Below are positions 14,366 through 51,201 of a DNA stretch of 64,000 nucleotides, in pieces. Position 1 is the stretch's first letter. Every line of letters begins with the position of its first letter. The notes below the pieces were generated by a model. It was not told where the DNA came from. It saw only the letters and a list, made by a program, of their open reading frames with translations, and ran no database searches. The position numbers and the translations under genes are program-made. Source of the DNA: Candidatus Marinacidobacterales bacterium (lineage in GTDB: Bacteria; Acidobacteriota; Vicinamibacteria; Marinacidobacterales; SMYC01); the NCBI GenBank assembly GCA_965237955.1, contig OZ250169.1:1280001-1344000 (forward strand), read 5' to 3'.

Positions 14366-14496
14366 GGTGGTCCTCTCCTAATCGTTTTCGTTGGCGATAA
14401 GGGCGAGGCGAGTGGATCCTACGATTGCGCTCTTGTATTTAGTCTACCAGGAAACGTGCCATGGTGGAATCACGGCCCGGAAGCGTGGGTAGTGTC

Positions 14497-15312
14497 CTAA
14501 TTTGCCGCCGCGACGAGATCCCGTAGTTCCAGGGGCTCATTCGCGATCCCCGCTTCCATCGCTGGTGTGACGCGAAGGCTCTTGTGGATGCGGCAGAAAT
14601 TGTAGTGCGCGAAGTGAAGGCTCACCGCTGCCTTCAAGTTCTCGACCTTTTTGCTGAAGGCGTTCGTGAGCCGGGTGAAGCGCCTCATCGACATTCGCAT
14701 GGTTAGATTCTGCCTCTCGACGTGCGACGTACATATACCCTTCGGGTTACCGACGATTTGCTCTGTACTGATGCTGGCGACCTTTGGTGGACTGTACCTA
14801 CCGGGGCCGACAGGCGTCGCTTCGAAGTGCTTTACGATTCGACCGTAATCAACATCTGAGCCGAAGCCTTGTTCAACGGCATCCACGTAGGCTTCCATCG
14901 CATCTGTAGACAGTTGCACGCGGCCTGCCAAGCGCGAAGCCAGATCACCAACAAAGGCTCGGGTGTTTGCGCCGTCGCGTTTTCCCACTCGATACGAAGG
15001 GACAAGCTTGCTGTCGGTATCGAGTGCAACATAGGTCCAGAAGTCACCATTCTGAGCTGGATCATCGGTAGGTCTCATGTGGCGCTGCTTCTTTCCGACG
15101 TAGCACCAGATCTCGTCCATTTGGAGGTGACGGCATTCGAGCCCGCGCATCTCCGAGTCCATGAATAGCGCTGAGATATCGCCGACCCGGACCATGAGGC
15201 GCATGATCGTGTCGCGATGAATGCCGGTCATGCGCTCGACCGAGCGGATCGAGCATCCTTCGACGAGCGCGGAAATGGCCGCCGTTCGCTTGTCAAGACT
15301 GAGCTTATTCAT
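14497..15312 (-). CDS. IS1-family transposase
   Basis: N-terminal HTH (LVEGCSIRSVERMTG), DEIWCYVGKK, STD, TSHVERQNLTMR…RFTRLTNAFSKK; stop lies within the TIR. Confidence 0.92.
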   Translation of the reverse strand: MNKLSLDKRTAAISALVEGCSIRSVERMTGIHRDTIMRLMVRVGDISALFMDSEMRGLECRHLQMDEIWCYVGKKQRHMRPTDDPAQNGDFWTYVALDTDSKLVPSYRVGKRDGANTRAFVGDLASRLAGRVQLSTDAMEAYVDAVEQGFGSDVDYGRIVKHFEATPVGPGRYSPPKVASISTEQIVGNPKGICTSHVERQNLTMRMSMRRFTRLTNAFSKKVENLKAAVSLHFAHYNFCRIHKSLRVTPAMEAGIANEPLELRDLVAAAN

Positions 15313-15352
15313 TCGCTTTCCCTCTCACTTCTATGCTACGTTCCTCTTCAGT

Positions 15353-15426
15353 TGGTGGAGCTGCTGGGAATCGAACCCACGTGGGGCAGGCTGTAAATAC
15401 CGCCCTGGGCACCAGCCCACAGCCCC
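15353..15426 (-). ncRNA. tRNA-like RNA with Ala-type acceptor stem and encoded CCA
   Basis: GGGGCTG/CAGCTCC-ACCA acceptor (G3:U70, A73), T-loop TTCGATT, mini D-arm GGGC-TGGT-GCCC, 6-bp stem with 10-nt loop in the anticodon position. Confidence 0.8.
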
Positions 15427-15435
15427 GAATAGACG

Positions 15436-15471
15436 AAGCCCTCCGAGGGTGTTGCCTCGGAGGGCTTTTTT
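15436..15471 (+). terminator. Intrinsic terminator-like hairpin
   Basis: 13-bp stem AAGCCCTCCGAGG/CCTCGGAGGGCTT with T6 on the + strand. Confidence 0.7.
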
Positions 15472-15488
15472 GTCTCTCATTAAGTATT

Positions 15489-15516
15489 ATTATCTCCATC
15501 CTCAGCATTTTGTCAA
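15489..15516 (-). promoter_or_regulatory. sigma70-type promoter for the tRNA-like RNA/transposase
   Basis: TTGACA-16 nt-GATAAT on the minus strand. Confidence 0.6.
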
Positions 15517-15606
15517 GGTAAAATAGAGACAACAAATGATAATATCGAGTTGTTTTATCCGCCACAAAGTGTTATCTTGTCGGCACAGAAAGAAGGGACC
15601 TATATT

Positions 15607-16386
15607 ATGGCCAACGAGACCGGGAAGCCTATTAGAAAGCGGAGCCCGAACCATCCAGCAATCAATCTCAAGATCGCGACCGCCAAGATCGAGCAAATTT
15701 ATGAGAACGAGAAGGGCCAACACTTTGTCCCGTCCGAGACGATTTTCAGTCACTGGGGGTACAACGCGAAAAGTAGCGCGGGCAATACAACTCTTGGGGC
15801 ATTGAAGCAGTTCGGGCTATTGGACGCCGGGAGCAAGGAAGGCCGCCCAGGAGAGTCTAAGCTCAGTGACCTAGCAATGGAGATTCTGCTGGACAAAGAT
15901 GGCAGTCTCGGGCACAGAGACGAAGCACTCAAGAAGGCAGCGATGAAACCTCCCCTGTACGCCAAGATTTTGGGGGATTCGGGCGGTAGCCTGCCATCCG
16001 ATAAGACGTTGTGCTATCAGTTGATTAGAGACCATGGGTTTTCAGAGAGTCGAGCGACGGATTTCATTAAAGAATTCCAATCCACTTTAGCCTTTGCAGG
16101 AATTACAGAAGACGATACACTACGCAATGGGAGTGAGGATGGTGAGGCTGCTTCTAGCGGCCCGCAACGCTCGCTAGATGAGAAAAACGCCCTGCCAAAT
16201 ACTTCCAAAGCGAGGCCAGGAATGAATCAGGATACATTCACTCTCGACGAGGGGCAGGTTGTGTTGCAGTGGCCGGCAAGCTTCAGTCCGGAGAACTACG
16301 AAGATCTAAAGGATTGGTTGGAGCTCATGGCAAGAAGAATGAAACGGGCTGTGCGCGAAGCCAAAGAAGAGACTAAACAGGAGTGA
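15607..16386 (+). CDS. IS cargo protein 1, hypothetical (possibly winged-helix-like)
   Basis: 259-aa ORF after a purine-rich RBS; RSPNHPAINL…WGY…LGALKQFGLL; AT-richer than host genes. Confidence 0.8.
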   Translation: MANETGKPIRKRSPNHPAINLKIATAKIEQIYENEKGQHFVPSETIFSHWGYNAKSSAGNTTLGALKQFGLLDAGSKEGRPGESKLSDLAMEILLDKDGSLGHRDEALKKAAMKPPLYAKILGDSGGSLPSDKTLCYQLIRDHGFSESRATDFIKEFQSTLAFAGITEDDTLRNGSEDGEAASSGPQRSLDEKNALPNTSKARPGMNQDTFTLDEGQVVLQWPASFSPENYEDLKDWLELMARRMKRAVREAKEETKQE

Positions 16387-16667
16387 ATGAGTTACCAATC
16401 TCTGAGTTCGAAAAGGCCATCCGTGAAACTCACGGTGCCGTTGCACGCCTAGACGTCAGGACACTCGTTGAGGAAACATTCCAAGGGGAAACCGTTTGGA
16501 CGGGCGAGGTGCTCGCCTTTGAACTCCAAGACCACCCGACCGCAACCCAGTGCTACGCATGGTCCGTTGGCGGTCGCGTAACTGCCGTTCTTCACGAAGG
16601 CCCTATCGACTCGCCCGAAGCTGCCGTCCGAGCAGCTATCGCTGCTGAACACCGAACGAAATCCTGA
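16383..16667 (+). CDS. IS cargo protein 2, small hypothetical
   Basis: 94 aa, GTGA overlap with cargo 1; ETFQGETVWTGEV…HPTA..CYAWS…SPEAAVRAAI. Confidence 0.8.
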   Translation: MNELPISEFEKAIRETHGAVARLDVRTLVEETFQGETVWTGEVLAFELQDHPTATQCYAWSVGGRVTAVLHEGPIDSPEAAVRAAIAAEHRTKS

Positions 16668-16717
16668 AGCGCCTCCGGTCAAATTAGGACACTACCGAAG
16701 CGTGGCGCGAGCACTGG

Positions 16718-16947: not shown

Positions 16948-18392
16948 GGAGGTGCCCCCACCATAGTTGAAGGTTCGAGGTGGTGGCGGCTCCTGACACA
17001 AGGTTTACCCGACTTTGGCGTGCTTGTCGAGCGCTTGATTCTCAGTGACCTCCGCTAACTTCGCTTCGAGGATCGGTAGCGATTGGTATCCAATGATACG
17101 ACGGAAATTTTTCTCCGTGGCGAGCAGAGCCGAAGCGGCCCATCTCAGAACCATCTTGCCATTGCGCCAGCGGGTGACGCGACGGGTACGACCTCGCGCA
17201 CCGCTGAAGCACGACTCGATGATGTTCGTCGATCCAAGGCAGCGTTTCAGAGATGCGGGGAGGTCGAGCTCGTCGATGGTGAACATCTCGTCGAGCCCCT
17301 CCCGGATGCTCTCCGCCGCCGAGGGGTAGTCGTCCTCGAGCCACTTCGCCTGTTGCTCCAACCGCGCTTTGCCCTTCTTTGCTGGGAGCTGCCAGGCCGA
17401 ACGCAGGCTCGCTTGCACTTGCGGCTTCAGCTCCTGCGGCAGATAACCGAGCACATTGCGCTCCTTGTGCTTCCTGCAACGCTGGACCTTGTTGTGGGTA
17501 CCGAACACAGCGTCGACGGCGACCCGTAGCGCCTTGGAGCCATCGATCACGAACAGCCGACACCGCTCTGGGCTCAGGCCTCGTTCGACCAGGTCCTCCA
17601 GCAGCGCCTTGCACACTATCTGGTTCTCCGATGCTCCATCCCGAAGCCCCAGAACATGCTTGTATCCCTCTGTATCTACGCCGATTGCCGCCAGCGCGTG
17701 GTGCTCGCCGAAGCGAATCCCGTCCAGGTACACGACCGCGATCTCCAGCTCGTCCAGCGGACGCTCCATCAGCCCCTGCAACTGCTCCGCGCTTGCTTCC
17801 ACGAACTCACGGCTCACCTCGCTCTTGCTAACCCCTACCGTCTCCGCCATCTCGGGAAGAACCGACGCGTACTTGCGCGTCGACACACCCAGCATCAGGA
17901 TTTCCCAGATGCGTTGGCTCAGCCGAGACGAGTTGTTCACCGCTTCGTAGGCAGGAATCGCAACCTCCCCTCCCTCTGCCTTTCCCTTACGCCGCAGACG
18001 TGGCCGGCTCACTCTCAACTTCCGCTCCGCAAGGCTTACTACGCCACCCTGCCGGCCGTGCCAGCGAACATCGCTACCCTTCTTCCCCGGGTGTTTCTCC
18101 CCAGCCACACTTTGGGCTGACAGATCCAAGACCGCTTCGATCGTCGCTCGGCCAGCAACGTCGATCACTTCGTCGATCGCTATCTCGGTTCGCTCAATCG
18201 CATCCAAGAACGGCAACAGAGCTTGCCCCTTCGAGCTCAGTATCTCTCGAAGCTTCTTCCTGTTCTTCGCATCGATGATTTGGTAATTTGACATCGTGGT
18301 GGCTCCTTTCTTTTTCCTTCACAGCCGGATTCTATCGAACCCGGCCTTAGGAGCCGCCACTCCTAACCTTCAACTATCTCAGGGGCATCTCC
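16948..18392 (-). mobile_element. IS256 family insertion sequence
   Basis: ~45-bp imperfect TIRs (GGAG.TGCCCC…ATAGTTGAAGGTT…GTGGCGGCTCCT); 8-bp TSD TGCGCGCG at 16940-16947 and 18393-18400. Confidence 0.95.
17005..18294 (-). CDS. IS256 (Mutator-type) transposase
   Basis: GVSTR, YLDG, VIDG, QRCRKH, STNIIES motifs. Confidence 0.93.
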   Translation of the reverse strand: MSNYQIIDAKNRKKLREILSSKGQALLPFLDAIERTEIAIDEVIDVAGRATIEAVLDLSAQSVAGEKHPGKKGSDVRWHGRQGGVVSLAERKLRVSRPRLRRKGKAEGGEVAIPAYEAVNNSSRLSQRIWEILMLGVSTRKYASVLPEMAETVGVSKSEVSREFVEASAEQLQGLMERPLDELEIAVVYLDGIRFGEHHALAAIGVDTEGYKHVLGLRDGASENQIVCKALLEDLVERGLSPERCRLFVIDGSKALRVAVDAVFGTHNKVQRCRKHKERNVLGYLPQELKPQVQASLRSAWQLPAKKGKARLEQQAKWLEDDYPSAAESIREGLDEMFTIDELDLPASLKRCLGSTNIIESCFSGARGRTRRVTRWRNGKMVLRWAASALLATEKNFRRIIGYQSLPILEAKLAEVTENQALDKHAKVG

Positions 18393-19880: not shown

Positions 19881-19966
19881 TGGTGCCGAAGGGGGGATTT
19901 GAACCCCCACTCCCCGAAGGAAACTGCGCCCTGAACGCAGCGCGTCTGCCGTTCCGCCACTTCGGC
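19881..19966 (-). tRNA. tRNA-Leu(CAG)
   Basis: GCCGAAG acceptor, anticodon stem CTGCG/CGCAG with loop TTCAGGG, long variable arm, GTTCAAATC, CCA. Confidence 0.97.
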
Positions 19967-48764: not shown

Positions 48765-49158
48765 CGAGCCGACCAGATGATCGCTGGCTTTCTTCGGAAA
48801 GCGAGAGGAAAGTCCGAACTCCACAGGGCAGTGTGCTGGCTAACGACCAGTCCGGGTGACCGGAAGGAAAGTGCCACAGAAAATACACCGCCTCTTTTTC
48901 AGCCTTGGTTCAGCCTCGGTTGGGGAAGCGGTAAGGGTGAAAAGGTGCGGTAAGAGCGCACCGCTCCGGTGGTGACACCGGAGGCAGGGTAAACCCCACA
49001 CGGAGCAAGACCAAATAGGGGAGCGTTCGAGGGTGGCCCGCCTGAAGCTCCCGGGTAGGTCGCTGGACCGGGCGAGCAATCGCTCGGCTAGATAAATGAT
49101 CGTCGCTTCTTCGAGGGTGACCGAGAAGAAGAACAAAATTCGGCTTACGGTCGGCTCG
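48765..49158 (+). ncRNA. rnpB: RNase P RNA (type A)
   Basis: GAGGAAAGTCCGAACT, GAAAGTGCCACAGAAA, GGTAAACCCC..GGAGCAAG, AACAAAATTCGGCTTA; P1 pairs the ends; TATAAT at 48746. Confidence 0.97.
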
Positions 49159-49169
49159 GACAGGTTTTT

Positions 49170-51037: not shown

Positions 51038-51201
51038 TCGAGATGCTCCGGAGTCGGTGATAGTGTCCGAGTTTGAAGTGAACGGCTAACTCTTGGGATC
51101 GCAGCATATTCTGGGGCCCGACCGCGACCGGCTGCCGGTTGACGAGGATCGGTCAACCTCCATAAACTGGTTCAAATGCTGTACTTCTGGGGAATGAACG
51201 C

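Follow-up and report, generated by a model that had tools for sequence, protein, structure and literature searches.

A 74-nucleotide (nt) tRNA-like gene on the minus strand of a 64,000-nt stretch of Candidatus Marinacidobacterales DNA (contig OZ250169.1, positions 1,280,001 to 1,344,000; the whole stretch is referred to below as the window) is cargo of an IS1-family transposon and lies in the leader of the transposase gene. Comparison with its relatives indicated that the element, at window positions 15353-15426, is more than a chance cloverleaf and is a conserved tRNA-like gene, with a strongly supported alanine identity and an anticodon-type loop whose conserved property appears to be a triplet complementary to the stop codons UAA and UAG. 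Among several possible readings we tentatively prefer that of a suppressor-type tRNA.

A tRNA-like gene in the leader of an IS1-family transposase

The transposon spans 14488-16696 (2,209 bp) and is ordered as terminal inverted repeat, transposase gene (minus strand), spacer, tRNA-like gene (minus strand), hairpin, AT-rich promoter region, cargo open reading frames (ORFs) A and B, and terminal inverted repeat (Table 1). The borders of the element, its repeats, the target-site duplication and the gene order show that the tRNA-like gene is carried by the transposon, a context that was absent from the first-pass annotation of this DNA, in which a non-canonical cloverleaf had been described. The transposase matched the Pfam model DDE_Tnp_IS1 with 32.3 bits (cut-off 24.1) and the NCBIfam model for IS1 family transposases with 59.8 bits, which is below the cut-off of 100. 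No second copy of the tRNA-like gene was found in the host genome (G000), where the transposon is single-copy at the DNA level.

Perfect 17-bp inverted repeats also bound the related elements in genomes G015, G008 (two copies), G023 and G060, which are units of 2.3-2.4 kb located at unrelated sites. An exact 8-bp target duplication was present in three of the six full copies (window, G015 and G060); the two G008 copies, which have different flanks, carry imperfect duplications (7/8 bases in one and a one-base displacement in the other), and the G023 copy is without a target duplication. A remnant in G021 retains only the cargo-side repeat, together with a tRNA-like gene that is truncated at its 3' end. 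Between 14488 and 15429 the window is 94% identical to the G015 locus and 89% identical to the two G008 loci, and the similarity is lost beyond the 5' end of the tRNA-like gene on one side and shortly after the stop codon of the transposase on the other.

Upstream of the tRNA-like gene on the minus strand there is a sigma-70-type promoter-like site, the -10 hexamer of which ends 62 nt from the 5' end of the gene, followed by a hairpin (15435-15468) that on the minus-strand RNA would be read as a stable 5' leader hairpin. The AT-rich region around the promoter-like site also contains weaker promoter-like sites on the plus strand, and no terminator-like site was seen between the tRNA-like gene and the transposase (15313-15352). 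When related loci were inspected by eye, a comparable hairpin was present upstream of the tRNA-like gene in G021, L108, L115, L116, L117 and L118, and in L108 and L115 the leader hairpin was preceded by the similar sites TTGACA-17-TAGAAT and TTGACA-17-GAGAAT. Ordinary IS1 relatives, also examined by eye, have a TTGACA...TATAAT promoter directly at the transposase ATG. Given this position of the promoter in the ordinary relatives, the hairpin and the tRNA-like gene look as if they had been inserted into the transposase leader.

The 17 distinct sequences of the family come from genomes of Acidobacteriota, from metagenome contigs of soil and sediment and from a single viral contig (IMG/VR). A BLAST search with the 74 nt against 61 related genomes returned full-length copies only in G000 and G015 and a partial copy in G021, and BLAST against phage and plasmid collections gave no match. 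Three copies were used to build a covariance model. Among the 19 genomes of the host family it recognised four copies with 88-100 bits, distributed over 3 genomes (one each in G000 and G015 and two in G008), the next-best matches being ordinary tRNA-Ala genes with at most 38 bits. An exact-pattern scan of one genome per species identified four stretches, all of them in metagenome-assembled genomes of Candidatus Marinacidobacterales. When 401 genomes of the class were searched with the transposase, relatives with 94-100% identity were found in G015, G023, G008 and G060, and in G023 and G060 a more divergent tRNA-like gene is located at the equivalent place.

By means of ORF-B, 80 metagenome loci were obtained, and in 15 of them the start of an IS1-type transposase was seen upstream, on the other strand. 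The tRNA-like gene lies between ORF-B and the transposase in seven of these 15 loci (L108, L109, L115, L116, L117, L118 and L127, the last with a degenerate copy in the equivalent position that has a broken T loop) and is absent in the other eight. Further members were found in L105, where the gene lies beside the cargo and there is no transposase, in G641 (from 401 genomes of the phylum) and in the IMG/VR contig. The 25 IS1 relatives with about 50% transposase identity were all without the tRNA-like gene. In each of the 11 loci that have both the element and a transposase start (G000, G015, G008, G023, G060, L108, L109, L115, L116, L117 and L118), the element is located 29-40 nt upstream of the ATG of the IS1-type transposase and on the same strand. 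A single IS1 sub-lineage carries the tRNA-like element, as an optional module. Worn relatives were also seen, with an acceptor mismatch in L117, a poor fold in L109b and the truncation in G021. ARAGORN, which was run on 60 of the 80 metagenome loci, missed most members and assigned inconsistent anticodons (Lys CUU, 'Stop' UUA), and its calls were excluded from all tallies.

A few additional observations concern these loci and tRNA-like sequences elsewhere. In L109 (2821-2972, minus strand) two tandem tRNA-like genes lie 9 nt apart upstream of the transposase, and the second is poorly folded. In the truncated copy of G021 (L010:1501-1690) the 3' acceptor strand is missing and the break coincides exactly with the start of a tRNA-Sec gene on the opposite strand, and the D tetraloop of the host-family tRNA-Sec, UGGU, is the same as that of the tRNA-like gene. 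Near ORF-B homologues at L181:641-693 and L184:2578-2630 (G477 and G465, one genus) there is a 53-nt sequence resembling an acceptor/T-arm mini-helix (GGAGGGCU...GGGGUUCGAnUCCCUCACCUUCCGCUA), which scored weakly, falls outside the tRNA-like family and could be a fragment of a tRNA or what is left of an attachment site. An identical 74-nt sequence starting with TGTAGGC and without CCA was called as 'tRNA-Glu(CUC)' by ARAGORN at G000:C1:421050-421123 and 2884722-2884795. False positives or a repeated element probably account for this pair and for further odd calls, at 3447333 and 7889963.

Cloverleaf, alanine identity and loop triplet

The cloverleaf string given in the first-pass annotation is the exact reverse complement of 15353-15426, and the acceptor stem, A73-CCA end, UGGU D loop, G·G mismatch at the T-stem base and T loop noted there were all confirmed. 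The 7-bp acceptor stem (GGGGCUG/CAGCUCC) includes G3·U70 and is, together with A73 and CCA, identical to that of the host tRNA-Ala(GGC). The D stem has 5 bp with a 4-nt loop (UGGU) and abuts both neighbouring helices, the anticodon-type arm is a GC-rich hairpin containing UAUUUACAGC, with the loop AUUUACA, the closing pair U28·G36 and a stem of 7 bp from which one U (15388) bulges out, the variable region has 3 nt and the T loop is UUCGAUU. A single-nt connector had also been proposed, and this did not hold since U8 pairs with A21 and the pair covaries, being U-A in G000, G015 and L116, A-U in G008 and C-G in L108 and G021. An alternative 8/4 fold by way of a U8·G63 pair was rejected because of this covariation of position 8 with position 21, and not with positions 63/65.

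Measured against a canonical tRNA, the gene keeps the 7-bp acceptor stem, the 5-bp T stem and a 7-nt T loop of the UUCRAnn type; the two connector nucleotides (8 and 9) and nucleotide 26 are missing, and its D loop is shorter than the canonical 7-11 nt. The canonical anticodon arm is likewise not obtained, since a 7-nt loop with U33 does form but the stem has 7 bp plus a bulge and position 37 is C. Folding of the whole strand gave a rod-like structure with z-scores of only -2.1 and -2.7, which conveys little information, as is usual for tRNAs. ARAGORN called the site as 'tRNA-Cys, anticodon ACA', a register that was discarded as unsupported by the family comparison. The host genome (8.13 Mb, 60% G+C) has the usual isoacceptors, including tRNA-Ala GGC/UGC/CGC, tRNA-Val UAC/CAC/GAC and tRNA-Cys GCA, and a normal transfer-messenger RNA (tmRNA) of 350 nt with the tag ADNQLALAA (G000:C1:2167633-2167982). 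Given these genes, the tRNA-like gene is an extra gene.

Structure was tallied for 15 full-length members with pairwise identities of 54%-90% (median 69%), and base pairs were counted by scripts at fixed positions anchored at the ends. A 13-member MAFFT alignment with misaligned 5' ends and a model-fitted alignment that had drawn in ordinary tRNAs were excluded from the pair counts. The pairs G1-C72, G2-C71 and G3·U70 and the nucleotide A73 were invariant in 15/15 members, and G4-C69 was present in 12/15, the window copy among them. Acceptor pairs 4-7 showed three or four pair types each with 59 of 60 cells paired, and when the T-stem pairs 49:65 and 50:64 were included each of the six variable positions showed 3-5 pair types. 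In total 87 of the 90 cells at these positions were paired as compared to 59.0 +/- 3.0 with shuffled partners, and none of 2000 shuffles reached 87, a figure that is inflated by kinship among the sequences, the independence of which it overstates. The D-stem pair beside the loop covaries as well (C-G and A-U), the 7/5 acceptor/T branch is supported by covariation and the variable region ranges from 2 to 5 nt across the family. The T loop is UUCRAnn in 14/15 members and most copies have a 4-nt D loop of the form NGGN, so that the elbow contacts of a tRNA would be available. These findings indicate that the element is maintained as a tRNA-like gene and did not arise by chance.

For recognition by alanyl-tRNA synthetase (AlaRS), the acceptor stem of a tRNA is required and the anticodon is dispensable, and G3·U70 together with A73 is sufficient. 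A G·U pair that never turns into G-C or A-U while the neighbouring pairs vary is the signature expected under selection for recognition by AlaRS, and the alanine identity of the tRNA-like gene is strongly supported by this pattern. In G015 the acceptor stem of the element differs from that of this genome's own tRNA-Ala. An alanine anticodon was already noted as missing in the first-pass annotation, and no NGC triplet was found in any loop register.

Two registers of the anticodon-type loop had been proposed, UU-UAC-AG and, with one bulge, AU-UUA-CA. The D and anticodon-type region of 16 sequences was folded with a 7-nt loop forced into each register, and the register NN-NUA-(C/G)A was better by 2.2-10.8 kcal/mol in 16/16 and was the unconstrained minimum in 9/16. 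A standard closing pair (U·G, G-C, G·U or U-A) was obtained in 12/16 sequences for the NUA register and in 3/16 for the UAC register. In the window copy the NUA register is the minimum-free-energy fold (-18.8 kcal/mol vs -15.2 kcal/mol for the UAC register), and both comparison and folding favoured the one-bulge reading. Conservation of the loop among homologues agrees with this: the triplet is UUA in 11, CUA in 5 and AUA in 1 of the 17 members, with variation at the wobble base only, and 16 of the 17 have a triplet that would read a stop codon. In L109a the NUA register still gives UUA, whereas the other register shifts from UAC to UAG. On the basis of these sequence comparisons, complementarity to UAA/UAG is the property of the triplet that is conserved.

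Table 1. Features of the transposon, of the tRNA-like gene and of the surrounding window
Feature	Position	Strand	Remarks
Target-site duplication, left copy	14480-14487		8 bp, GAAGCGTG; directly abuts terminal repeat
Terminal inverted repeat, transposase side	14488-14504	plus	17 bp, GGTAGTGTCCTAATTTG; includes the transposase TAG stop
IS1-family DDE transposase	14497-15312	minus	271 amino acids, intact; ORF and Pfam DDE_Tnp_IS1
Spacer, tRNA-like 3' end to transposase ATG	15313-15352	minus	40 nt; purine-rich ribosome-binding stretch
tRNA-like gene	15353-15426	minus	74 nt; same string as in the first-pass annotation
Acceptor stem	15426-15420 / 15363-15357	minus	G3 = 15424, U70 = 15359
D arm	15419-15406	minus
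Anticodon-type arm	15405-15384	minus
7-nt loop AUUUACA	15392-15398	minus	UUA = 15396-15394, U33 = 15397, C37 = 15393
T arm	15380-15364	minus
A73	15356	minus
Encoded CCA	15355-15353	minus
14-pair hairpin	15435-15468	plus	followed by a T run; intrinsic-terminator-like, facing the antisense side of the tRNA-like gene
Sigma-70-type promoter-like site	15489-15516	minus	TTGACA-16 nt-GATAAT, 11/12 matches
Cargo ORF-A	15607-16386	plus	259 amino acids from ATG; TTG at 15550 would give 278 amino acids
Cargo ORF-B	16383-16667	plus	94 amino acids; conserved hypothetical protein
Terminal inverted repeat, cargo side	16680-16696	minus	17 bp, GGTAGTGTCCTAATTTG; perfect match to 14488-14504
Target-site duplication, right copy	16697-16704		8 bp, GAAGCGTG
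IS256/Mutator-family transposase	17005-18294	minus	Pfam Transposase_mut, 128 bits
tRNA-Leu(CAG)	19881-19966	minus	ordinary; ARAGORN coordinates; Rfam tRNA pass at 19884-19966, the sole RF00005 pass in the window
Bacterial RNase P RNA, class A	48765-49162	plus	329 bits; ribozyme that would process the tRNA-like gene
Partial match to the terminal repeat	51059-51075	plus	17 nt with 3 mismatches (GATAGTGTCCGAGTTTG); related IS1 end or chance

Possible roles of the tRNA-like RNA

The reading that we favour, if only tentatively, is that of an alanine-chargeable, stop-anticodon, suppressor-type tRNA that is carried as transposon cargo and is probably weak. The tRNA-like gene would be transcribed together with the transposase from the promoter at 15516-15489, behind the leader hairpin, and the tRNA-like RNA would be released by RNase P and 3' processing enzymes. 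After charging with alanine by AlaRS, the RNA would present its UUA loop to UAA and UAG codons on the ribosome and act as a weak alanine-inserting nonsense suppressor, which would move from genome to genome with the transposon. A precedent for this reading exists in the acidobacterial allo-tRNAs with G3:U70 and UUA and in irregular tRNAs linked to transposons, which were described by Mukai et al. (Nucleic Acids Res 2017; PMC5389517). A wider proposal is that IS1 transposons of soil and marine Acidobacteriota place a stripped-down, UAA/UAG-reading alanine tRNA between the transposase gene and a strong promoter. Every insertion would then bring with it a mobile modifier of the genetic code, expressed along with the transposase, and low-level alanine read-through would occur at stop codons of the host, or of competing elements with many UAA and UAG codons; this is possible, and we consider it rather doubtful.

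Several features of the RNA and of the host weigh against suppression. Position 37 is C in 16 of the 17 members and a purine in almost all working tRNAs, and position 33 is U in only 11 of the 17 members (C in 4 and G in 2). The gene is without nucleotides 8, 9 and 26 and has an elongated and bulged 7-bp anticodon-type stem. Given the C37, the variable position 33 and the elongated stems, efficient decoding appears doubtful. The window copy also has the G·G mismatch at pair 49:65, where a standard pair is present in the other 14 of 15 members, and no match at 15353-15426 reached the gathering cut-off of 29 bits of the Rfam tRNA model (RF00005), any tRNA match at the site having scored lower than the 32.6-bit match of the Rfam tmRNA model (RF00023) and been dropped in that scan. 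About 49% of the long open frames of the host end with TAA (18%) or TAG (31%), so that an efficient suppressor would be costly. In the intact genes of the element itself no in-frame UAA or UAG was found, and the only in-frame stop codon was a TGA in the broken G060 transposase.

The stop codons of the transposases showed no clear link with the presence of the tRNA-like gene, which likewise lends suppression no support. Transposases accompanied by the gene end with TAG (6), TAA (4) or TGA (1), and those without it end with TAG (5) or TGA (2) in the metagenome loci and with TGA (16), TAG (6) or TAA (3) in the relatives with about 50% identity, a tally that does not count as evidence given that kinship is a confounder and that TAG sits within the shared terminal repeat. 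Contigs 85-95% similar to the transposase were obtained from two metatranscriptome runs of one study and derive from relatives. None of them spans the tRNA-like gene and two end at 15330-15332, and contigs from one study cannot show the end or the absence of a transcript.

The first-pass annotation had listed a mistranslating or suppressor tRNA, a tmRNA-like alanine donor without an mRNA part and a non-decoding mimic. Alanine identity is borne out by the identity set in 15/15 members, the valine and mini-tmRNA readings have lost ground, and suppression and mimicry remain as serious candidates. A tRNA mimic that is charged or chargeable and does not decode, acting in cis or as a small RNA, is a close rival and might quite conceivably be the correct explanation. 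In one version, RNase P and 3' processing enzymes would cut the RNA out, which would detach the transposase mRNA from its promoter-proximal end and in this way set the transposase output; in another, the RNA would be an alanine donor or a protein-binding RNA in which the conserved UUACA loop is a binding site and not an anticodon. Mimicry would fit with the constant feature of the 11 loci with both genes, namely adjacency to the transposase at a distance of 29-40 nt, and with a hairpin and tRNA-like gene that look inserted into a leader whose promoter in ordinary relatives sits at the ATG. The same loop and stem features that speak against efficient decoding (C37 in 16/17, the variable position 33 and the elongated stems) also speak for it, as do the irregular acidobacterial tRNAs of Mukai et al. 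(PMC5389517) that were charged yet did not decode in E. coli, a finding unfavourable to suppression; the idea that some such tRNAs are charged and remain unused in translation was raised in that paper. However, a processing signal alone would not need G3·U70 and A73 in 15/15 members or variation of the wobble base between U and C only, 8 of the 15 related IS1 elements with ORF-B manage without the tRNA-like gene, and copies persist beside the cargo after loss of the transposase (G021 and L105).

The remaining explanations are less probable. A decaying, tRNA-derived relic that hitch-hikes with the transposon and is functionless in the window copy is unlikely, even if the window copy alone has a G·G pair at the T-stem base (1/15), worn relatives exist (L117, L127, L109b and G021) and the Rfam tRNA model stayed below its cut-off. 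Four stems covary in the family and the alanine identity set is invariant, and in the window copy itself the acceptor, D and anticodon-type stems are unbroken, CCA is encoded, U33 is retained and the promoter matches at 11/12 positions, in a transposon that is intact, with perfect repeats and a target duplication; decay is less likely for the family than for the window copy itself. Less probable still is the Val-to-Ala mistranslating tRNA of the first-pass annotation, in which the register UU-UAC-AG would supply a UAC anticodon reading GUA. In its favour, UACA is kept in 16/17 members, position 37 becomes A, position 33 is U in 11 members, and many members have UUUACAC, which is the loop of the host tRNA-Val(UAC), but the closing pair is non-standard in 13/16 sequences, the fold is worse by 2.2-10.8 kcal/mol in all 16 and the triplet of L109a becomes UAG. 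We give the least credence to a mini-tmRNA, that is, an mRNA-less alanine donor entering stalled ribosomes with SmpB. The Rfam tmRNA model does align the acceptor stem and T arm, and G3·U70 and A73-CCA are common to tmRNA, but the score of 32.6 bits is under the cut-off of 47 (41.1 bits, also below the cut-off, in the whole-genome search), only both ends are aligned with 326 internal model positions reduced to 35 nt, and there is neither a tag reading frame nor a pseudoknot. Moreover, the place of helix 2 of tmRNA is taken by a full anticodon-type arm, a normal tmRNA is encoded elsewhere in the genome, and the acceptor stem matches the host tRNA-Ala(GGC) just as well.

Passenger genes, neighbours and known systems

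ORF-A and ORF-B of the window copy gave no match in Pfam, NCBIfam, PADLOC, PHROGs, a PDB sequence search or a protein atlas. Homologues of ORF-A with 41-43% identity are located at the equivalent place in G023, G060 and G021. For ORF-B there were 275 relatives at E<=0.001, all unnamed, and two short peptide patterns from it were estimated to match about 2,200 metagenome stretches, of which 598 were scanned and 243 of these were confirmed to encode a relative. The G008 and G015 elements carry a different, large cargo ORF on the transposase strand (L036:1711-2427 and L009:1711-2505, both minus strand) and an extra ORF of 67-75 amino acids ahead of ORF-B. This second type of large ORF scored 30.3 bits with Pfam DUF5343 (cut-off 27) and also matched PDC-M34A, a candidate defence model of PADLOC (E 5e-7), and its profile similarity to ORF-A is weak (E 0.57, probability 9.9%). 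No mention of DUF5343 was found in a full-text literature search.

The IS1 transposon and the IS256/Mutator-family transposase, which lies some 300 bp past the cargo-side terminus of the former, form a small cluster of mobile elements between a PilZ gene and the tRNA-Leu gene. A contig from run X2 (library type unrecorded, presumably DNA) joins 14479 to 16697 and omits 2,217 bp, with 9 letters shared at the joint. This junction would correspond to an empty site in part of the population, a weak hint given that the shorter side has only 21 letters.

Insertion sequences are usually thought to carry only what is essential for mobility. The single-ORF and ISMhu11-type groups of IS1 in ISfinder are IS1-family elements with passenger genes, and the window element resembles them in its single-ORF DDE_Tnp_IS1 transposase, ends that start with GGnnnTG, 8-bp duplication and extra genes between the ends. 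A conserved RNA that bears the marks for charging and a stop triplet in an IS1 leader would mean either that tiny transposons spread read-through devices or that transposase is controlled by tRNA mimicry. Phage suppressor tRNAs for TAG or TGA have the canonical cloverleaf and are encoded by large phages that use the recoded stop codon in genes of their own. They likewise combine a mobile element with a stop-matching anticodon, whereas the carrier here is a 2.2-kb insertion sequence whose own genes are without in-frame UAA/UAG.

With bacterial tRNA-Ala, as represented by the host GGC isoacceptor, the tRNA-like gene has in common the acceptor stem, A73, CCA, the G3·U70 set and the T arm. It differs in having no NGC anticodon, a minimal D arm, a 7-bp bulged anticodon-type stem and a 3-nt variable region. 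The tRNA-like domain of tmRNA (RF00023) has a similar alanine-type acceptor stem and T arm, but the tRNA-like gene is without an mRNA-like part or pseudoknot and has an anticodon-type arm. Having a D loop of 4 nt and neither connector nucleotides nor a variable arm, the family offers a natural minimal tRNA scaffold of interest for structure-function work and code engineering.

The closest known relatives in kind are the irregular tRNAs of Acidobacteriota. In a full-text literature search no paper was found that describes a tRNA-like gene in an IS1 element or a transposase leader, the supplementary figures of Mukai et al. (PMC5389517), which possibly show similar sequences, lying outside that search. 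Passages of this paper describe acidobacterial allo-tRNAs with a D arm like that of tRNA-Sec and longer anticodon stems, report that some allo-tRNAs with G3:U70 and a UUA anticodon inserted alanine in E. coli after an anticodon swap, and associate irregular tRNAs loosely with transposon-related and toxin-antitoxin genes. As far as these passages go, the allo-tRNAs resemble the present family in their occurrence in Acidobacteriota, a long D stem with a 4-nt loop, a lengthened anticodon stem and a subset with G3:U70 and UUA. However, the defining features of allo-tRNAs given there are a long variable arm and a 12-bp acceptor/T branch divided as 8/4 or 9/3, whereas the tRNA-like family has a 7/5 branch and a variable region of 2-5 nt, and, unlike the allo-tRNAs so described, it has C37 and a fixed site in an IS1 transposase leader within defined inverted repeats. 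The tRNA-like family extends the irregular acidobacterial tRNAs of Mukai et al. (2017), at least as those passages present them, and fails the defining features of allo-tRNAs, and one group of such tRNAs thereby gains a defined mobile context.

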